A stretch of 64,000 nt of DNA. Origin: an uncultured Clostridia bacterium. GTDB lineage: Bacteria > Bacillota > Clostridia > Christensenellales > UBA1242. Location of the stretch: contig CALWTK010000004.1 in NCBI GenBank assembly GCA_944384465.1, forward strand, positions 5,257-69,256, given 5' to 3'. A program made the translations under genes and the position numbers. Below are positions 2,498 to 62,577 of this stretch, piece after piece. The first letter of the stretch is position 1; every line of letters starts with the position of its first letter. The notes below the pieces were generated by a model. The model made no database searches, was not told the DNA's origin, and was given only the letters and a program-made list of their open reading frames with translations.

Positions 2498-2908
2498 AGA
2501 CAATCCTTTGTGAAAATGTAGCACAAAAAAATTGAATAATATTATAAAAATAAATGAAAATTACATATTTTTATTGAAAAATTGTAGTTTTTTTGTGTTT
2601 TTTTATCAAAATTTTAAATTTTAATTGATTTTTTTATAACAATATTTTTTATATATCATCCGATATTCATTTTCAATATTCAAATAGAAATATTAAATAA
2701 ACTAAAAGAATTATTATTAAAAATTTATTGTTTTTGTTATATATGATAAATAAAAATAATTATTTTTTATTTATTCCAAAATATTTATAATAATTAATTA
2801 AATCTAGTATATTATTTTCGAGTCGTTATCTTATTTTTTTAGTTTAATAATATGCCCATCTTAAAATTCATCTTAGATCTCACGCACAAAACTATTGGAC
2901 AAAATTGC

Positions 2909-2937
2909 TTGACAATTTCAAATTTTTCATATAATAT
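2909..2937 (+). promoter_or_regulatory. Sigma-A-type promoter for the pheST leader
   Basis: TTGACA at 2909-2914. TAATAT at 2932-2937 gives a 17-nt spacer; an overlapping TATAAT lies at 2930-2935. Confidence 0.55.
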
Positions 2938-2944
2938 GATTGGT

Positions 2945-3182
2945 ATCAATAAAAACGATGAAGATGTGTGCAGTAGGGTTCAACTTTCATAAAGGGAGAG
3001 CATCCGCCGATTGAGAGATGCTTATGTTCAGGTTGGATCTGAATTTCAGCATTGGAGTTGCGTACTAGGAAAGTACGACAGACAAAACTGTGAAAATGTA
3101 ATGAAGGTAGATTGTGTCAATCTACGAATTTAGGTGGTACCACGAGATGTTCACTCGTCCTAATGATGGGGCGAGTTTTTTA
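2945..3182 (+). promoter_or_regulatory. T-box leader (tRNA-Phe-responsive antitermination) upstream of pheS
   Basis: Conserved T-box sequence AATTTAGGTGGTACCACGAG at 3127-3146. Terminator stem CTCGTCC/GGGCGAG at 3154-3175 followed by T6 at 3176-3181. GA/K-turn-like CGATGAA and GAGAGA elements lie upstream. UUC-A candidates for the specifier include 3045-3048. Confidence 0.85.
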
Positions 3183-4259: not shown

Positions 4260-6632
4260 ATGAAAGTTTTATTATCATGGATAAACGATTATGTAGATAT
4301 CAGCGGCTTGGACGTGAAGACAATAGCACGTGGACTGACCGATGCGGGCTTCGAAGTGGAAGAGATTATAGATAAATCAAAAGGTTTAGACAAGGTCGTT
4401 GTAGCGAACATCACTGAAATCACCCGCCACCCCAACGCTGATAAATTGGTAGTCTGTCAGGCTGATTACGGCTTCGGCAAGACACAAATTGTCACCCATG
4501 CAGACAACATGAAGGTCGGAGACAATGTGCCACTGGCGTTGGACGGAGCGGTCCTACCTAATGGCGCGGAGATAAAGAATGGAAGTCTTCGCGGTGTAGC
4601 GTCAAACGGCATGTTTTGTGCTGGTGAAGAATTGGGAATAGACAATTCCATCCACCCTAACGCCGAAGTCGATGGCTTGTTGATACTGGAAAAGAATTTG
4701 AAGCTGGGCACACCTATTGCAGATGTTTTGGGGTTAAATGAGACAATTTTGGATGTCAATGTCTTGCCAAATCGTGCAGATTGCAATTCAATATATGGCA
4801 TAGCAAAAGAAATCAGCGTCATATTTAACCTTCCGCTAAAATCGCTTGATTTGTCCTACACGACGAATTCAACGAAAAAGATAGACGTTAAGGTGGAAGA
4901 TTTTGACCTATGCCCTAGATATCAAGCGGTAGTGGTAGAGCATGTGAAAAACTCTTCTTCTCCCGCGTGGATGCAAAAGAGATTGTCCCTACTCGACCAT
5001 TCACCACACTCTTTGTATGTGGATATCACCAATTATGTTTTGCTAGAAGTGGGTCAACCCATGCATGCTTTTGACCTGTCAAAAATAAAAGGTGAAAAGA
5101 TTATCGTAAGGCACGCACACGAAAATGAGACAATCCTTGCCTTAGACGAAAAGACTTATACCTTGCACGACAACAACCTAGTGATAGCTAATGAACAAGA
5201 ACCCATGGTCATCGCTGGTATAATGGGCGGAATTGAGAGCGGGACCTATCCTGACACGAAAAATGTAGTGTTGGAAAGTGCGAATTTCTATTACGCCAAC
5301 ATCAGACGTAGTTCACACGCTCTAGGTCTCGGTAGTGACAGCAGTATACGATATTCAAAAGGTGTAAATATTGAGAATACAGAAATTGGCATGAAGCGCG
5401 CACTAAACATCATCACCAAATTAAAAGCGGGCGACATCTCAAACGTCATAATTGACGAAAACAGGGGGCTTCCTACTCTGCGCACAATAAAGAGCAGCAT
5501 AGTGAAGATCAACGAACGCCTTGGCCTAAATATAGCGACTGACGTCATGGTGGATATACTAAATCGTCTGGATATAAAGACGCATGTGGAGGGCGACAGT
5601 TTGGTATCAACCCCACCTGCTAACAGGACCGACCTAGAGAGAGATTGTGACATATGTGAAGAGATTGGTCGAATTTATGGACTAGACAAAATTTCGCACG
5701 AGGCATCCACCCCTACCGACTTCTCCACTGTTGGCGAATTGACCATTGAGCAGAAAAACATCAACAAACTAAAGACAATGTCCGCGTTCACTGGCTATAA
5801 TGAAATCATGACATGGCAATTCGGTTCGCCAAAGACTATATTGAATGCTGGATTGGATCTAGACAAGCACATAAAGATTCTGAACCCAATCGGTCAGGAT
5901 TATAGTGTGGTTCGTACAAGTCTCATCCCAGCTATGCTCAACACTATATCTTTCAACCTAAAGCAAGGGAATAAAGATCTAAAATTGTTCGAACTAGCAC
6001 GAGTGTTCATACCTAAACAATTGCCGCTCAGCGAACTGCCTGATGAGCACAGCAATCTATGCTTGAGCTTAACAGGAGATTATGACTTTTACAGGCTGAA
6101 AAATGATTTGAACAAAATTATGTCCAGTATAGGTGTCCGCCTAGACTATAGACAGGCAAGAATTCCACAAATACACCCTGGTATCTGTGCAGAAATCTTG
6201 CTATACAATAGACCGGTTGGATATATTGGAGAAGTTCACCCTAACATCTTGAACAACTTTGAAATATCTCAAAAAGTGTTCATCGCTGAAATCAATCTAT
6301 CCAACGCCATTATTAGACTGAACGATAGGCATACAGGTAACGCTCCAGAAAAATTACCTTTCATATCACGCGACCTCGCGTTTGTTTTGGACAAAGATGT
6401 GCCTGCAAATAAAATTATCGAGGTAGCTCTAAAAGCGAACAGATCTAGCATTATGGACTGTAAAATATTTGATGTCTACACATCAAGTAGCATTGGAGCA
6501 GACAAAAAGAGTGTGGCGATCACACTCTCAATAAAACAGGGCGAAAAACCTTTGTCTGAAGCAGAAATCGCACCTATAGTGGAGTCAGTTTTGCAAGCTG
6601 AAATCAAAAATTTTGATGCAAAATTAAGATAA
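4260..6632 (+). CDS. pheT: Phenylalanine--tRNA ligase beta subunit
   Basis: 790 aa. N-terminal tRNA-binding domain (ITRHPNADKLVVCQ), B3/4 and B5 regions and a C-terminal FDX-ACB-like end. Lies immediately after pheS. Confidence 0.95.
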   Translation: MKVLLSWINDYVDISGLDVKTIARGLTDAGFEVEEIIDKSKGLDKVVVANITEITRHPNADKLVVCQADYGFGKTQIVTHADNMKVGDNVPLALDGAVLPNGAEIKNGSLRGVASNGMFCAGEELGIDNSIHPNAEVDGLLILEKNLKLGTPIADVLGLNETILDVNVLPNRADCNSIYGIAKEISVIFNLPLKSLDLSYTTNSTKKIDVKVEDFDLCPRYQAVVVEHVKNSSSPAWMQKRLSLLDHSPHSLYVDITNYVLLEVGQPMHAFDLSKIKGEKIIVRHAHENETILALDEKTYTLHDNNLVIANEQEPMVIAGIMGGIESGTYPDTKNVVLESANFYYANIRRSSHALGLGSDSSIRYSKGVNIENTEIGMKRALNIITKLKAGDISNVIIDENRGLPTLRTIKSSIVKINERLGLNIATDVMVDILNRLDIKTHVEGDSLVSTPPANRTDLERDCDICEEIGRIYGLDKISHEASTPTDFSTVGELTIEQKNINKLKTMSAFTGYNEIMTWQFGSPKTILNAGLDLDKHIKILNPIGQDYSVVRTSLIPAMLNTISFNLKQGNKDLKLFELARVFIPKQLPLSELPDEHSNLCLSLTGDYDFYRLKNDLNKIMSSIGVRLDYRQARIPQIHPGICAEILLYNRPVGYIGEVHPNILNNFEISQKVFIAEINLSNAIIRLNDRHTGNAPEKLPFISRDLAFVLDKDVPANKIIEVALKANRSSIMDCKIFDVYTSSSIGADKKSVAITLSIKQGEKPLSEAEIAPIVESVLQAEIKNFDAKLR

Positions 6633-10450: not shown

Positions 10451-13400
10451 CTAACTAAATTCCAAAGTGAATACATAAGTGGTCATCTCGGTCACTGTGT
10501 CGTAAATGTTGATCACTTTTACATTCACGTTTTCATAAATCGTGTTGCTGTAATACGAATTGATGTCCGCGACTATCGTTTGAATTGTAGAGTTCGAAGG
10601 CAAGGATGTGTTCCCTAACATGGCACTTCTGCTGACCCTAAATTCAAAACTACTTCTATTCGACTCGTTTACTAGCAATTGATTGTATTTAGCGTATAGC
10701 ACAGTGTTCATAACATAAGCTTGCAATTGACTGTACCCTTGTGTTCGATCGTAAACTTGGTAAGACACTTGACCATTTTCAATATATTCTTTCATATAGG
10801 TAAAGTCTTCAATGTCGCTGCCTGCCCCAGTAATTGTAGCATTGATCTCATCTACTGTCATGCCAAAGGTCGCATTGGCATAATAGTCATAAATAGTCGT
10901 ACTCGTTGGAAGAGATACCAAGCTACTCTCTAATACATTTAACTGTCCGCTCAAGAAGCTGTCTGTCACCAAGAAATACAAGTGTGATGACATACCATAA
11001 CAATCTCTTATGTTGTAAGGTACATAATAGTTGTCCGAATAGGTCAAATCTAATGAATACCATGCACTTGAATTTTCGTTATCAGTAACATTTAGATAGA
11101 CTTTGTTCCAACTGTGATCAATAGTGACATTTTCTCCATTCAAAACATAGGTGTATGTGCCGTTTACTTTTCTTGTCTGTATACCTTCAATAGCACATAA
11201 TAGGGTGAACGCTTTTGAATATGCTTCAGCAGTCGCGTTCCTATTCCCGAGATAAAATTCGCCATCATATCCACCAATCGCACTGTTATTTAAATCATAG
11301 AAAATGCCTTCCATATAATATTCTTTTCTTAGTCCATAATCTTCAACCGTACCTTCCACTATCGAACCGCCCGATGTCGTCCTGTTTGCATAGTAATTTA
11401 GATTATAGGCATATTCCAACCAATCAAATATTGCCGTGACTTTTTCTAGATTGGACATATTATTATTGATTATCGCTACCAAAACTGCCTTAGCATTCGC
11501 ATACACCTGTTCAGCGACCGCACTATCTCCTACGAATCTAGGTTTTCTGCCATACTGCACCGCCATCAACAACTGCTCAGTCGTGGTGGCATCCATCTCA
11601 GGCAGTGAATCGATTTCAAAATTCGTGGTGATATTTCTTCGTGAATATATGTCGAGATATTTATAGTCGTTACCATAATCGGTTGCTAATTGAATATATG
11701 CACTTGGAGTATCAATTTTTGCTTCATCCAATAAATTTTCATAATAGATTTTGAAGTTTTGACTATTAGCCGTATGCGAAACATTTATTGAACTCAATAC
11801 ATTTAATTCTGGATACAACCCTAAAAGTTTTTCACAAAGGTAGCTAAAAATTGTACTTTCTGACGCCGTATTAACATAGCCTTCCCACACATCGTCGTCT
11901 GCAAAATTGTATAATACAGCATCTGTCGCCTCTTGTGCCAAACGCACTAAAGCTTCTGTCACACTTTCATCTTCATTGAGGCGCAAATACATACTCAATT
12001 GATATTCACTATCCACGCCGAACAGATAGTGATACCACAAAAGATACATCAAATCATTCACATCATCTATAGCAAAATCATAATATGACCCATACATATA
12101 TACCGAATATCTTTCATAATCATGTTCTACGGTATAAGTATAGTAGACTGGCCACTCTTCGCTAAATGGACTGGAGGTATACTCGCTCGCATTGTTCCCT
12201 GTCGAATTCACCATAGATTTAATCGAAATCAAATAGTTGCCTTCTACAGTAATGCTGTCGTTTATATTGTATTGATTTGTGTTATATGCATGATATTCAT
12301 CCACATCACCTTTAGGGTCGGTCACTCTGATGATATAATAATCCGCATGTTCATCCCCCGTCCATGACACCAAAAATTCGTTCGCAGAATTGTTGGCACA
12401 TTTCATGTCTGAAGGAGTATTCAAGGTCGTCAATTTGTTTAACACCGCATAGGTGCTGGATTCGTCCGAATCACCATAATAACTGTTCTTTGGAGCTAAA
12501 GCTGTGACGTAAATATAATATTCTCCCGCCTGACGCACATATTCTGTAATGTCTGTAGATTGTATCACTTCGAAAGGATTTTGTAGTCCTAAATCATATA
12601 GATAATCTATATATGTTCCGTCATTTATTTTAACGATTCTCACTCTATATGCTGCCGCGTTGTCTTGCATGTCAAAAGACAAAGTATACACGCCATCATT
12701 TTCTGCAACACGGATGTTGGTCACCTGATTTAATTGCATTGTGAGGACAAATTCGTATGTCGCATAACTGCTAGGTTTTACACTTTCGCTATCGACTGGC
12801 AATGCTCTAACCATAATTGTATAACTATTAGCACTGGATACATAGTTTGTGATATCGACTTCATAAAGACTTACGTTATTAGAGTCCACTACATTTATCG
12901 TATTGAAGTTCACCATCACTTCATAACTCGTGGCGAATTCCACTCCATAGAAACATAGGTAGTAATATGTCCTTTCATTGATTACACGCCTAACTACAGG
13001 AGTCAATTCATTGTTCTCATTCCTCAAAAATTCTGGTGTAGCCAACACTCGTTGATGCGAGACAACTAGACTTCCTAGTGTGGTCAATTCACTATTCGAA
13101 TATCCACTATATGGGGCGGCAACTGCTTGCAACTGTACATAATAATCTCTATACTCACCTTCTTTGATGATATATTGAGATAGGTCAATGACTGTACTTG
13201 TAAATAATCTATTTATCCTTACAGCTTCAGTGTTGTCCTTCCCCATCAAGTACACATAATATCCTATCGCATTATCCACTCCGGTAAAGGTCAAAACATA
13301 TGGTTCAGCATCTTGGAAGCCTTGTCCACTGCCTATACTTGGAGTAGCCAACTGGATATTGTAGCTTAGACTTGCGCTCACGCTTTTTATAGCATATTCA

Positions 13401-52086: not shown

Positions 52087-52435
52087 CCTTTCTGTCCACG
52101 GTGTGTCTCCATATCTTCTCGTCGCAACTCTCCCTCTTACTTAATTGCTTTCGCAATTTTCGCTTTTGGTCGGTCGCTCCTTTTTCCCATACTTGCTTCG
52201 CTCATATGGGTCCCTTTTCGTTGTTGAAGATATTGTGCTTAGCCTTTCTGTCCTCGGGATTGTCTGTCCATATCTTCTCGTCGCAACTCTCCCTCTTACT
52301 CAATTGCTTTCGCAATCTTCGCTTTTGGTCGGTCGCTCCTTTTCCCATACTTGCTTCGCTCATATGGGTCCCTTTTCGTTGTTGAAGATATGGTGCTTAG
52401 CCTTTCTGTCCACGGGATTGTCTGTCCATATCTTC
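52087..52435 (-). repeat. Tandem repeat, 156/158-bp unit x 2.2. On the minus strand it is an inverted homologue of the module array at 54.5-55.0 kb
   Basis: Units at 52087-52242, 52243-52400 and 52401-52435 are about 95% identical. See findings for the alignment to 54651-54753. Confidence 0.9.
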
Positions 52436-53621: not shown

Positions 53622-54359
53622 CTATTTTTCAATGGATTTGATAATGTTGATAGTGTTCATCGTGTTTGGAAAGCCAATGTACGGAAGACATTGCAACATA
53701 GTGGCAATCAAAACTTCCTTCGTATTCCCTACCTTTAAATTTCCTAAAACATGTGCCTTAATTTGAGAGTCAGACCTAATTGTCGTGAGAATAACCAAAA
53801 CTAGCAATTCTCGTGTCTTTATGTCTAACCCTTTTCGTGTATAAAAATCTCCAAATCCAAATTCAGTCAAATATTTTGATATTTCAGGAACATCTGTATA
53901 TTTGTCCTTTATCTCATCGCCGTATAAAGGATATTGTATATCATGCCCCGCTTTGAATCTAGTTGTTTCATTTACCGTACCCATATTTTCAAGTGGTAAT
54001 TTAATTCCCCTTGCTTTGAATACATCATTCATTGTCCCTGCCGCATTTAACGTCTTTGGAAAACCTATAAATGGTGCCAACTGATACATCGCTTCTCTAA
54101 TTTAAATTGGAGTCGCTCCCACTTGCAACGCCCCGTTGATATGTGCGGATAATTGTGGCAATGTCTGCATGGTCGCAAGAGCGGTAATCGTTATCAATTC
54201 GCGAGTCTTAAAATCAATTGCTTCACTGCTATGGAAAACATCCCCAAATATAAATCTTCTCAAAATCTCCATTAGTTCATGATCTGTCTCATTTTCAGCT
54301 TTTGGAAGTTCTCCAAATAATTTATTATAAACTTCTTTACTTAATTCAAATCTATCCAT
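53622..54359 (-). pseudogene. Two-domain carboxymuconolactone decarboxylase (AhpD-like) gene with one in-frame TAA
   Basis: ORFs 54102..54359 and 53622..54089 are in the same frame. Reading through the stop gives ...GALQVGATPI*IREAMYQLAPFIGFPK, a continuous CMD motif. The stop codon lies at 54102-54104. Confidence 0.75.
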
Positions 54360-54475
54360 ATCTTTCTCCTATATCATATATAATATCATAAATATATTTA
54401 CTTTATCTAATATTTTTATATAGATTTATTATAAGTATTTTTTTATTAATTTTCATATTTTTATAACACCGATTT

Positions 54476-55004
54476 CTTGCAAGGACTTGTTCGAAGTGGG
54501 ACTTAACGGGGTCCCCATGAAACGCATGTCGAAATGGGGTTACATTCGGGGTCCCCATAAGCACTGGTGCGCAATGGGGCTAATGTGGGCAGTTTCCCAT
54601 AAATAAAGTTTTGCGACTAGCAAAACGATAAAAAGCGATGAAAAAAGTATAGGAGTCCCACAAGTGCCCAAAGGGTACGAAGTGGGAAGAGGAGCAACAG
54701 ATCAAAAAGGCAATAATTGCGCAAGCAATTTGCCAAAAGATCAAGTTGCGACGAGGGTCCCCACGAGAACTTGTTCGCAGTGGGGAATAAAAAACGAACG
54801 CTTGTTAATGACACTTTTGCGATTATGTAAGTAATCGCTGCGTCAAAAAAGCGTGTCTCAAAAAGGGCTCCCACAAGCACTCTTGCGTAGTGGGATAAAA
54901 AAATGACCGCTTGTAAACGCCACTGTTACATTTTTTCATTGTGGTGAACTAATAATGCTTCTCCATATAAATGGGGTCCCCATTAGCACTTGTGCGCAAT
55001 GGGG
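54476..55004 (+). repeat. Array of seven ~32-nt covarying hairpin elements (period 103-110 nt), each followed by its own hairpin; candidate modular ncRNA
   Basis: Elements: ~54476-54501 (truncated), 54508-54539, 54548-54579, 54651-54687, 54754-54785, 54864-54895 and 54973-55004. There is no credible ORF, and the region is GC-richer than neighbouring spacers. Confidence 0.75.
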
Positions 55005-55007
55005 AAT

Positions 55008-55087
55008 AAAAAAACGAACGCCCATAAATCTTACTATTGCAGTTTTATATCTAAAACTGCGGTAAGTAACGGGCGATTCGTTTTTTT
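55008..55087. terminator. Extended ~30-bp hairpin flanked by A7 and T7; bidirectional terminator abutting the tRNA-Leu 3' end
   Basis: A7+CGAACGCCC (55008-55023) pairs with GGGCGATTCG+T7 (55071-55087). Inner helices are CTTAC/GTAAG and GCAGTTTTA/TAAAACTGC with loop TATC. Confidence 0.7.
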
Positions 55088-55171
55088 GGTGCGGATAACA
55101 GGACTTGAACCTGCACGAGTTGCCCCACTAGAACCTGAATCTAGCGCGTCTGCCATTCCGCCATATCCGCA
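55087..55171 (-). tRNA. tRNA-Leu (anticodon CAG), type II with long variable arm, CCA encoded
   Basis: The minus strand reads TGCGGATATGGCGGAATGGCAGACGCGCTAGATTCAGGTTCTAGTGGGGCAACTCGTGCAGGTTCAAGTCCTGTTATCCGCACCA. The anticodon stem is CTAGA/TCTAG with loop TTCAGGT. Confidence 0.9.
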
Positions 55172-62534: not shown

Positions 62535-62565
62535 TAAAAAATGTACCATGTAACGTTTGGTACAT
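62535..62565 (-). terminator. Rho-independent terminator after tRNA-Ser
   Basis: On the minus strand: 8-bp stem ATGTACCA/TGGTACAT with a 9-nt loop, followed by T5-6. Confidence 0.65.
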
Positions 62566-62577
62566 TGAAGGTAATAA

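Follow-up and report, generated by a model that had tools for sequence, protein, structure and literature searches.

The described systems closest to the repeats reported here are the REP sequences and BIMEs of enterobacteria and the BOX, RUP and SPRITE repeats of Streptococcus pneumoniae. The Escherichia coli REP reads GTAG-GCCGGAT-AA-GGCG..CGCC-GC-ATCCGGC (Table 1 of PMC2817692). The pneumococcal elements, of which BOX has the build boxA-boxB(n)-boxC, are judged to be parasitic with slow turnover, and BOX elements sit inside T-box leaders, one of them forming a composite structure with T-box riboswitches (PMC3049150). A locus resembling both was found in a 64-kb stretch of DNA from an uncultured Clostridia bacterium (hereafter the window; coordinates are positions in it), in the gap between the start of a split carboxymuconolactone-decarboxylase (CMD) gene (54359) and tRNA-Leu(CAG). 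Six intact copies and one decayed copy (R0) of a ~31-nt hairpin, termed SH, alternate there with longer hairpins that follow SH, termed LH, and the array closes with a terminator-like hairpin abutting the tRNA gene. With a probability of roughly 0.6, region 54476-55087 is considered to be a mosaic in the manner of REP/BIME or BOX, built of short intergenic repeats that are non-autonomous and fold into hairpins, and not a dedicated RNA gene, and the SH/LH family is apparently undescribed. A first-pass annotation, made from the letters alone, had proposed one structured RNA of ~0.6 kb or a tandem array of small RNAs (sRNAs) at this position.

In the plan GGGK-YCCCAY-RA-GNN..NNC-GNA-RUGGGR, SH shares with REP an unpaired G-rich head, an outer stem of 6-7 bp and a purine bulge on the 5' side (PMC2817692), together with a short inner stem (GC-rich in REP) and a free loop. 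Both are imperfect palindromes of 20-40 nt kept by compensatory changes, and both are extragenic and lie in mosaics with other motifs, often at gene 3' ends or terminators; SH differs from REP in being strongly tied to the flanks of tRNA and rRNA genes, toward which it points. With BOX, RUP and SPRITE the family shares a modular intergenic build in which the internal modules vary in number, a high degree of secondary structure once transcribed and sites in T-box leaders (PMC3049150), a likeness that is architectural only, no sequence similarity being apparent; BOX, moreover, is not associated with tRNA genes and has its modules in a fixed A...C frame, where the present family has SH in alternation with LHs of several types.

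Structure and covariation of the SH hairpin

SH has a length of 31-36 nt. Its head, GGGK, is unpaired, and an outer stem of 6 bp (YCCCAY/RUGGGR) is separated by an asymmetric internal loop (RA on the 5' side, GNA on the 3' side) from a freely covarying inner stem of 3-6 bp, which carries a variable loop. The head reads GGG(T/G/C/A) in 57/57 copies, the invariance of GGG and of the CG.A loop residues being partly imposed by the search patterns. In a hand-curated alignment of 34 copies, 95.5% of the stem cells were paired and double-sided changes were present in 8 of the 12 pairs. Among the 57 distinct copies aligned to a covariance model, 97.2% of the stem cells were paired, against 80% in shuffles and 36-60% when the partners were slid, and 110 double-sided changes were counted in six of ten pairs (all four inner and two outer pairs); none of 500 shuffles attained the observed values of pairing and covariation. 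Each inner-stem pair takes three to five pair types, AU, CG, UA and GC all being used at one of them, and the two variable outer pairs switch from C-G to U-A together. Since the inner stem was unconstrained in the search patterns, its covariation has not arisen through ascertainment. The hairpins are selected for a folded single-strand structure rather than for sequence, and the earlier statement that compensatory changes here denote selection on RNA or single-stranded DNA (ssDNA) structure has thereby been upheld. The GNRA cap, which had been offered as further evidence of such selection, is not conserved in homologous modules elsewhere.

The palindromic 31-bp units, the 40-bp spacing of R0-R2 and a recombinase fragment near the locus in one strain contig (L002, see below) might suggest that a dimeric protein, for example a recombinase that uses tRNA-Leu, binds the hairpins as double-stranded DNA, in the manner of operators, res sites or iteron-like sites. 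However, the inner-stem positions vary and yet stay complementary, which is predicted by hairpin formation and not by half-site recognition, and this explanation is scarcely credible.

Organisation of the array

The modules follow one another in the order R0-R1-R2-C(truncated)-R3-B-R4-A-R5-A(decayed)-R6-A1, where R denotes SH copies and A, B and C denote types of LH (Table 1). R0-R2 are three copies at 40-bp spacing, and from R2 on the start-to-start distances are 103, 103, 110 and 109 nt. In the 64-kb window a covariance model of SH (model R1, built from alignment A1) recovered the six intact copies with 31-47.5 bits (E 6e-10 to 9e-6) and only two further, weak matches, on the minus strand at 52185-52215 and 52343-52373. 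The G+C content of the array is 43.6%, as against 13-22% in the other spacers of the window, and no credible open reading frame (ORF) was found in an ORF check of the gap, both in line with the first-pass annotation.

That annotation had placed the seven repeats correctly (54476-54501, 54508-54539, 54548-54579, 54651-54687, 54754-54785, 54864-54895 and 54973-55004), and its outer stems (CCCCAT/ATGGGG, CCCCAC/GTGGGG and TCCCAC/GTGGGA), inner stems (GCAC/GTGC, GAAC/GTTC, GGAC/GTTC and GCCC/GGGT, with none in R1) and hairpins (GTTTTGC/GCAAAAC at 54608-54626, GCAAC...GTTGC at 54694-54749, GCGATTA/TAATCGC at 54819-54838 and A7...T7 at 55008-55087) are as it described them. Its reading of R0 as a 5'-truncated copy needs amending, since R0 is present but decayed rather than merely truncated: the 5' arm reads TCTTGC in place of the expected TCCCAC, there is no fold (z +0.41) and the covariance model misses it at E<=1. 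Likewise, a stable hairpin for each module exists where one had been named, but the module at 54896-54972 is not significantly structured (Table 1). The decayed modules of the array are thus R0, the module at 54896-54972 and the C-type LH, in which the GUUUUGC/GCAAAAC hairpin (54608-54626) is left together with the 5' half of the closing stem (AUGUGGGCAG), the 3' half of that stem being absent.

Table 1. Features of the array and of the second SH locus in the window
Feature	Positions	Strand	Remarks
Second array: (63-nt X, SH variant, B-type LH) x2, then X'	52108-52435	-	Model 14.8 bits for each SH
AT-rich spacer, 12.9% G+C	54360-54475	.	Between divergent CMD start and array
TATAAC box	54462-54467	+ (possible promoter)	Directly before R0
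R0, decayed SH	54476-54501	+	3' half intact, 5' arm mutated
R1, SH with outer stem only	54509-54539	+	Model 38.1 bits, E 1.5e-7; fold
R2, SH	54549-54579	+	Model 47.2 bits, E 7e-10
C-type LH, truncated	54580-54650	+	BLAST matches in L069, L055, L015, L013, L149
R3, SH with longer inner stem GUGCCC/GGGUAC (one G.U)	54652-54687	+	31 bits; -19 kcal/mol, z -5.2
B-type LH (GGAGCAAC...GUUGCGACGA)	54691-54752	+	-22.4 kcal/mol, z -5.75
R4, SH	54755-54785	+	Model 47.5 bits, E 5.7e-10
A-type LH (A6-CGAACGC...GCGAUUA/UAAUCGC...), diverged, without U-tract	54786-54863	+	-19.5 kcal/mol, z -3.0
R5, SH	54865-54895	+	Model 38.5 bits
Decayed A-type module	54896-54972	+	A7...T6 frame left; structure not significant (z -1.15); family D2
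R6, SH	54974-55004	+	Model 44.4 bits
A1-type LH, A7 and T7 flanks	55005-55087	.	-35.5 kcal/mol, z -7.1
tRNA-Leu(CAG)	55087-55170	-	Gene toward which the array points

The region as a whole folds far better than shuffles (z -11.2), and better on the + strand (-226.7 kcal/mol) than on the - strand (-207.1 kcal/mol). This fold, the neighbouring tRNA and the lack of an ORF would suit a single large ornate RNA of a new class, comparable to ROOL, GOLLD, OLE and raiA in its size, its many hairpins and its position close to a tRNA. The array differs from these RNAs in being made of interchangeable repeats that are polymorphic between strains, and it is these repeats that the long-range pairs of its minimum free energy structure join. 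Rfam 15, searched with the window at gathering score and with the region at E<=10 on both strands, returned the tRNA only, in agreement with the earlier failure to recognise ROOL, GOLLD or OLE; no covariance model of these, of raiA or of any other Rfam family matched, even at E<=10. Because the number of copies varies, modules decay, Rfam gives no match, modules are dispersed over unrelated loci and SH also occurs in Bacteroidales, the region is not regarded as a single large RNA, and with module number and order differing between strains and species such an RNA is very improbable. The other first-pass proposal, a tandem sRNA array, was given up because the internal modules have neither promoters nor U-tracts. 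The TATAAC box before R0 could be a + strand promoter; a promoter scan did not detect a strong + strand promoter in the spacer 54360-54475. A TATAAT-like box likewise stands ahead of a 5'-truncated first hairpin in the arrays of two comparison loci, L069 and L013.

LH types and the predicted terminator of tRNA-Leu

SH is normally followed by one LH out of the few recurring types. Type A (SH-AAUAAAAAACGAACGCCC...GGGCGAUUCG-U-run) is flanked by A- and T-runs and resembles a bidirectional terminator; on visual comparison, the diverged copy at 54786-54863 is a homologue of the tRNA-Leu terminator hairpin in L072, the orthologous locus. Type B (SH-AAAAGGAGCRACCGA...GUUGCGACG, also written GGAGCRAC...GUUGCGACG) has a closing stem that covaries (GCAAC/GUUGC, GCAAU/AUUGC, GCAAA/UUUGC and GCGAC/GUUGC, the last with G.U), and its architecture is also present at 52.1-52.4 kb of the window and in L013, L016, L055 (three times), L056, L122, L067 and L127. 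Type C (SH-(A/C)UAAUGUGGGC...AUAAAUAAA-GUUUUGC hairpin...GCCCACAU, with the short form AUGUGGGC...GUUUUGC hairpin) recurs in the five loci matched by BLAST in Table 1; a complete copy with a 16-bp closing stem abuts tRNA-His in L149 and tRNA-Leu in L013, and the block of three SH at 40-nt spacing plus C is found again directly upstream of tRNA-His in L069. In the spacer after tRNA-Leu(UAG), orthologous C-type hairpins read GUUUUAC/GUAAAAC versus GUUUUGC/GCAAAAC (L055 ~2400 and L149 ~830), a compensatory pair that was produced either by selection acting on the stem or by conversion with a different copy.

The terminal A1 hairpin begins directly after the CCA end of tRNA-Leu(CAG) and is 98% identical over 61 nt (BLAST) to a module beside tRNA-Leu(UAA) of Ca. 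Onthoplasma faecigallinarum (L013). From this position, its A7 and T7 flanks and its stability, it is predicted to be a bidirectional intrinsic terminator of tRNA-Leu.

Occurrence at other loci

A scan of one genome per species with the pattern GGGKYCCCAY-N11-CG-N-A-RTGGG returned many single matches in GC-rich genomes, which are probably due to chance, and a coherent set in AT-rich gut metagenome-assembled genomes (MAGs), consisting of Ca. Onthoplasma (Christensenellales, NCBI taxonomy), several 'uncultured Clostridia' bins and a Christensenella-labelled bin. The covariance model gave 90 matches (57 distinct) across about 50 loci, and an Rfam search of 18 related loci yielded tRNAs only, plus one sub-threshold T-box in L127. 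SH+LH is found in tRNA operon spacers, in a 16S leader (L111), in a 16S trailer (L108) and in the T-box leader of L127, with the modules occurring singly or in other combinations, and in the Christensenellales-like loci all SH copies are extragenic. In L127 (6705-7070) a 122-nt SH+B module is inserted at stem III of the leader, and owing to this insertion the T-box (47.6 bits, E 2e-9) remains below the Rfam gathering threshold of 93 bits. The density of copies amounts to 8 at 2 loci in the 64-kb window and to 7 in 8 kb of L055. The second locus of the window, at 52108-52435, consists of 158-nt tandem units whose X, a host-derived hairpin, takes in the stop codon of an 86-aa FakA-like ORF; the locus lies upstream of an HD-domain gene and is identical in L002 and L130-L131.

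In three loci from rabbit-gut 'uncultured Clostridia' MAGs (L016, L039 and L047), SH is nested in the loops of an abundant palindromic repeat, GTCATTCTGAGCG...CGAAGAATC and variants. One such nested cluster lies, judging from the flanking sequence, within what we take to be an rpsP-KH-rimM operon, the gene names being presumed.

SH is shared with a second phylum. The covariance model matched at 42-46 bits in gut Bacteroidales MAGs (L028, L029, L050, L082, L090 and L096) and likewise in a bin of 56% G+C (L024/L045/L046), and most of the 38 loci of a second metagenome scan were matched as well. The bin of L045 is labelled 'Mycobacteriaceae', a label that is probably wrong, as the sequence context is Bacteroidales-like; at 2505-2859 this locus holds four identical 108-nt tandem units, each with an SH. 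Bacteroidales copies are nested in a larger palindrome, CCCCUCC...SH...GGAGGGG, after stop codons. At L171 6813-7373, and also in L028, L029 and L164, an SH-bearing composite palindromic insertion lies within a small lipoprotein-like ORF that reads through it (in L171, ...VVVYVG-RPPLTTRPPLTPPSRGENSEHRNPPPAGSPQARGRSGVLSKEGLGEVLELGRS-HYHTEYRD...). Rickettsia palindromic elements (RPE) are hairpin repeats able to sit in-frame in protein-coding genes; SH resembles them only in these Bacteroidales copies, with lineage and sequence both different and the Christensenellales-like copies lying outside genes. No match was obtained by BLAST of the region against plasmid and phage collections or of a Bacteroidales copy against plasmids, and the SH pattern had 0 matches in viral contigs.

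Strain comparison and instability of the array

Sister-strain contigs, chosen by identical neighbouring proteins, carry the locus in two versions. L001 and L011 are like the window, and L002 is shorter, with R0, R1, R2 and the C-type LH followed by a single hairpin in which the R4 stem is fused to the R6 3' flank and the terminator; it therefore has three intact SH against six in the window, R0 being present in both. This pattern fits unequal recombination between SH copies, by two deletions or expansions. The orthologous locus of a genus-level relative (L072; amino acid identity 66% for p162 and 36% for SIMPL) has two SH and an A-type terminator beside tRNA-Leu(CAG). Judging from the modules held in common and from synteny with L056 and L072, the source of the window is probably a Christensenellales-like gut bacterium related to Ca. 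Onthoplasma. Six short-read assemblies break inside the array because of the repeats (listed: L004, L008, L012 and L130-L133). More distant p162 homologues (L173-L179) have no SH and a different synteny, and are uninformative.

In relatives tRNA-Leu(CAG) is a hotspot of integration, with an island at its 3' end in L002 and a module at its 5' end in L172 and L056. The L002 island (~1.95 kb, 10984-12935, equivalent to window ~55087) lies between the 3' end of the tRNA and the terminator, is bounded by TTGGTGCG direct repeats and encodes an 83-aa N-terminal fragment of a serine recombinase running into the tRNA, a 213-aa ORF and an 84-aa ORF. L056 shows a 16-nt duplication of the 3' end of the tRNA.

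It is conceivable from this hotspot, with the recombinase fragment and TTGGTGCG repeat of L002 and the duplication in L056, that the array is a purely local product of immobile modules, formed by tandem duplication and decay of the tRNA-Leu terminator or left as scars of island integration and excision; modules R4-R6 share the frame SH-A-run-CGAACGC (direct-repeat family D2), and there is a possible CACCA remnant at 54941-54945. Against a local origin, which is regarded as improbable and which identical modules at unrelated loci refute as a sufficient explanation, the same module types recur at many tRNA, rRNA and non-tRNA loci in several species and SH also in Bacteroidales, neighbouring modules of the array differ in LH type and are not copies of one another, and no tRNA 3' fragments were found between the array modules.

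Orientation and insertion at stable-RNA genes

Orientation was counted over independent flanks of stable-RNA genes, with orthologous flanks collapsed. The sequence SH-then-LH points toward the gene in 11 of the 13 flanks (p=0.022), and the module lies on the sense strand of the gene in six flanks and on the antisense strand in seven. As the modules do not follow the strand of the gene, a purely co-transcribed cis-RNA role is disfavoured. Upstream modules stop 2-3 nt before the tRNA 5' end (L055 three times, L069 and L149), and downstream modules start 0-4 nt after CCA (window, L013, L067 and L072), in which position LH presumably serves as the terminator of the tRNA. Inverted SH copies occur only across a tRNA, on its opposite sides (L013 and L055). 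Elsewhere, SH is antisense to both of its neighbours (L066) or located upstream of a promoter (L016).

These counts bear on the proposal that SH is a functional RNA motif bound by an RNA-binding protein or processing enzyme, acting in cis in the leaders and trailers of stable RNAs, while the array, with transcription starting in the AT-rich spacer and stopping at the shared terminator, would be a multi-site decoy or sponge of the CsrB/RsmZ type. The strong covariation, the invariant unpaired GGG head and A/G..A internal loop, a consensus that is the same across phyla, the many sense copies in transcribed spacers (L055, L069, L111, L108 and L127), the TATAAT-like box before a 5'-truncated first hairpin in three arrays, the better + strand fold and the G.U excess on that strand would all agree with it. 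It is nevertheless thought rather unlikely, given the near-equal split between sense and antisense flanks, the copies that are antisense to both neighbours, upstream of promoters or translated within an ORF (L066, L016 and L171, respectively), the decayed modules in the window array and the share of the search pattern in the invariance of head and loop; no candidate protein is known.

Filled target sites were found at two tRNA genes, and for one of them, tRNA-Leu(CAG), empty sites as well. L172 (6290-6606), with the same dnaA-to-xth synteny as the window and 86% identity in p162, carries an insert of ~160 nt at the 5' end of tRNA-Leu(CAG). The insert contains an AT-rich stretch, 11 nt that repeat tRNA positions ~23-33 in inverted orientation, and an SH variant with its B-type LH; behind it the first 28 nt of the tRNA occur once more, as a direct duplication. 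The site is uninterrupted in the window, L002 and L072, and a homologous filled site, likewise with the 28-nt duplication, is found in L056 (~2850-3125). At tRNA-Ser(GGA) in L122 (~5305-5500) the layout is the same, the target being copied directly over 21 nt and in inverted form over 11 nt; in L172, L056 and L122 alike, the inverted 11-nt copies of adjacent tRNA sequence stand immediately before SH. The duplicated unit at 52.1-52.4 kb of the window measures 63 nt. Comparison of these sites shows that modules have been gained or lost between relatives, bounded by unusually long target duplications.

Possible mechanism and assignment of the family

If the locus is a REP/BIME- or BOX-like mosaic, the SH hairpin may be recognised, as a folded single strand, by a trans-acting protein that would spread or maintain the modules. 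The most likely candidate would be an HUH enzyme, REP-associated or IS200/IS605-like, with ssDNA as its substrate, a protein of the HUH/Y1 type being favoured because the plan of SH resembles enterobacterial REPs, and an RNA-binding protein would be less likely. The near-identical SH consensus in gut Bacillota and Bacteroidota could then result from horizontal spread of such a system, and modules that are transcribed would probably be only passive stable structures, namely terminators or protectors of transcript ends.

Several observations weigh against this assignment. The head is GGGK in SH and GT(A/G)G in REP, and the SH copies of the array are all direct, whereas those of BIMEs alternate. 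REP families are normally lineage-specific, and that two phyla have one SH consensus in common could instead mean a conserved host factor or an RNA function. To our knowledge, target duplications of 21-63 nt with short inverted target copies match no known transposition chemistry. No Y1 transposase or RAYT-like ORF was detected among 5925 ORFs (~1.1 Mb) by phmmer with two Y1-transposase probes, a search that is weak on account of the probes. The window has only two SH loci. Finally, the ratio of G.U pairs to A.C mismatches on the GGGGUCCCC strand (18:9, p=0.12) is not significant and fits RNA as well as ssDNA; the G.U excess and the better + strand fold are hints as to the relevant strand, by which RNA and ssDNA are not separable.

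More tentatively, SH+LH may be an undescribed mobile system, directed inward at tRNA and rRNA boundaries, generating the 21-63-nt target duplications and at times a short inverted target copy, shared between Bacillota and Bacteroidota and driven by an enzyme that recognises SH on a single strand. Dictyostelium TRE and yeast Ty3, retrotransposons that are autonomous and rely on Pol III factors, target the flanks of tRNA genes. The resemblance, one of analogy only, lies in elements at fixed short distances on both sides of tRNA genes, in 'safe havens'; SH+LH differs in its size of ~100-190 nt and its lack of an ORF. Should such a mobile system exist, it would be a prokaryotic counterpart of these eukaryotic tRNA-targeting elements.

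The directional accumulation at tRNA and rRNA boundaries and the identical core hairpin in two phyla are the unusual features of the family. The recogniser of SH could reveal a new mobilisation system, REP-like or of the HUH type, in bacteria other than Proteobacteria, or else a novel RNA-protein interaction. An annotation of the locus should name a repeat cluster with a tRNA terminator and not a new large non-coding RNA, and the covariance model can be used to mask SH elements in gut MAGs or to take a census of them.

Other identities considered

A literature search with SH sequence strings returned nothing relevant, and keyword searches returned only general papers on REP, BOX and stem-loop repeats. 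The preQ1-I riboswitch, suggested by a hairpin plus A-rich tail, gave no Rfam match; the K-turn, the sarcin-ricin loop and the 11-nt receptor, considered as readings of the internal loop, do not fit the consensus; and the loops are too long for a G-quadruplex. Tandem sRNAs like LhrC, RoxS or csRNA were rejected, as the C-runs are paired and the units lack promoters and terminators of their own. A CRISPR array, which would have unique spacers of 25-50 nt, was rejected because the spacers (8, 71, 66, 78 and 77 nt) are themselves repeated structured modules, and an integron attC array, with its RYYYAAC/GTTRRRY boxes, was rejected on the B-type closing stems, which vary (GCAAC/GTTGC, GCAAT/ATTGC and GCAAA/TTTGC) without conserving AAC/GTT. 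For a type III toxin-antitoxin system of the ToxI kind, the 40-nt-spaced R0-R2 should have been followed by an ORF, in place of which a tRNA or further modules follow, here and in L069. The modules are not a miniature inverted-repeat transposable element (MITE) in the strict sense, as their ends (SH versus LH) are not inverted repeats and the duplications flanking B-type modules (21, 28 and 63 nt) have no fixed length; in the fetched loci SH was not seen as an inverted pair around an ORF. The first-pass annotation had named a match to the end of a known MITE or insertion sequence, or to a family already in Rfam, as grounds against its own proposal, and in spirit the dispersed, MITE-like character of the repeat supplies such grounds, although the family itself seems undescribed and matches none in Rfam.

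Neighbouring genes

The other tRNA of the window, tRNA-Ser(CGA), is accompanied by a plain terminator hairpin (62540-62577) without SH or LH; the repeats therefore do not accompany every tRNA. The CMD gene, on the minus strand, is split by an in-frame TAA at 54090-54101 into ORFs of 85 and 155 aa, and because L002 and every other strain contig fetched have this stop too, it is fixed and not a sequencing error.

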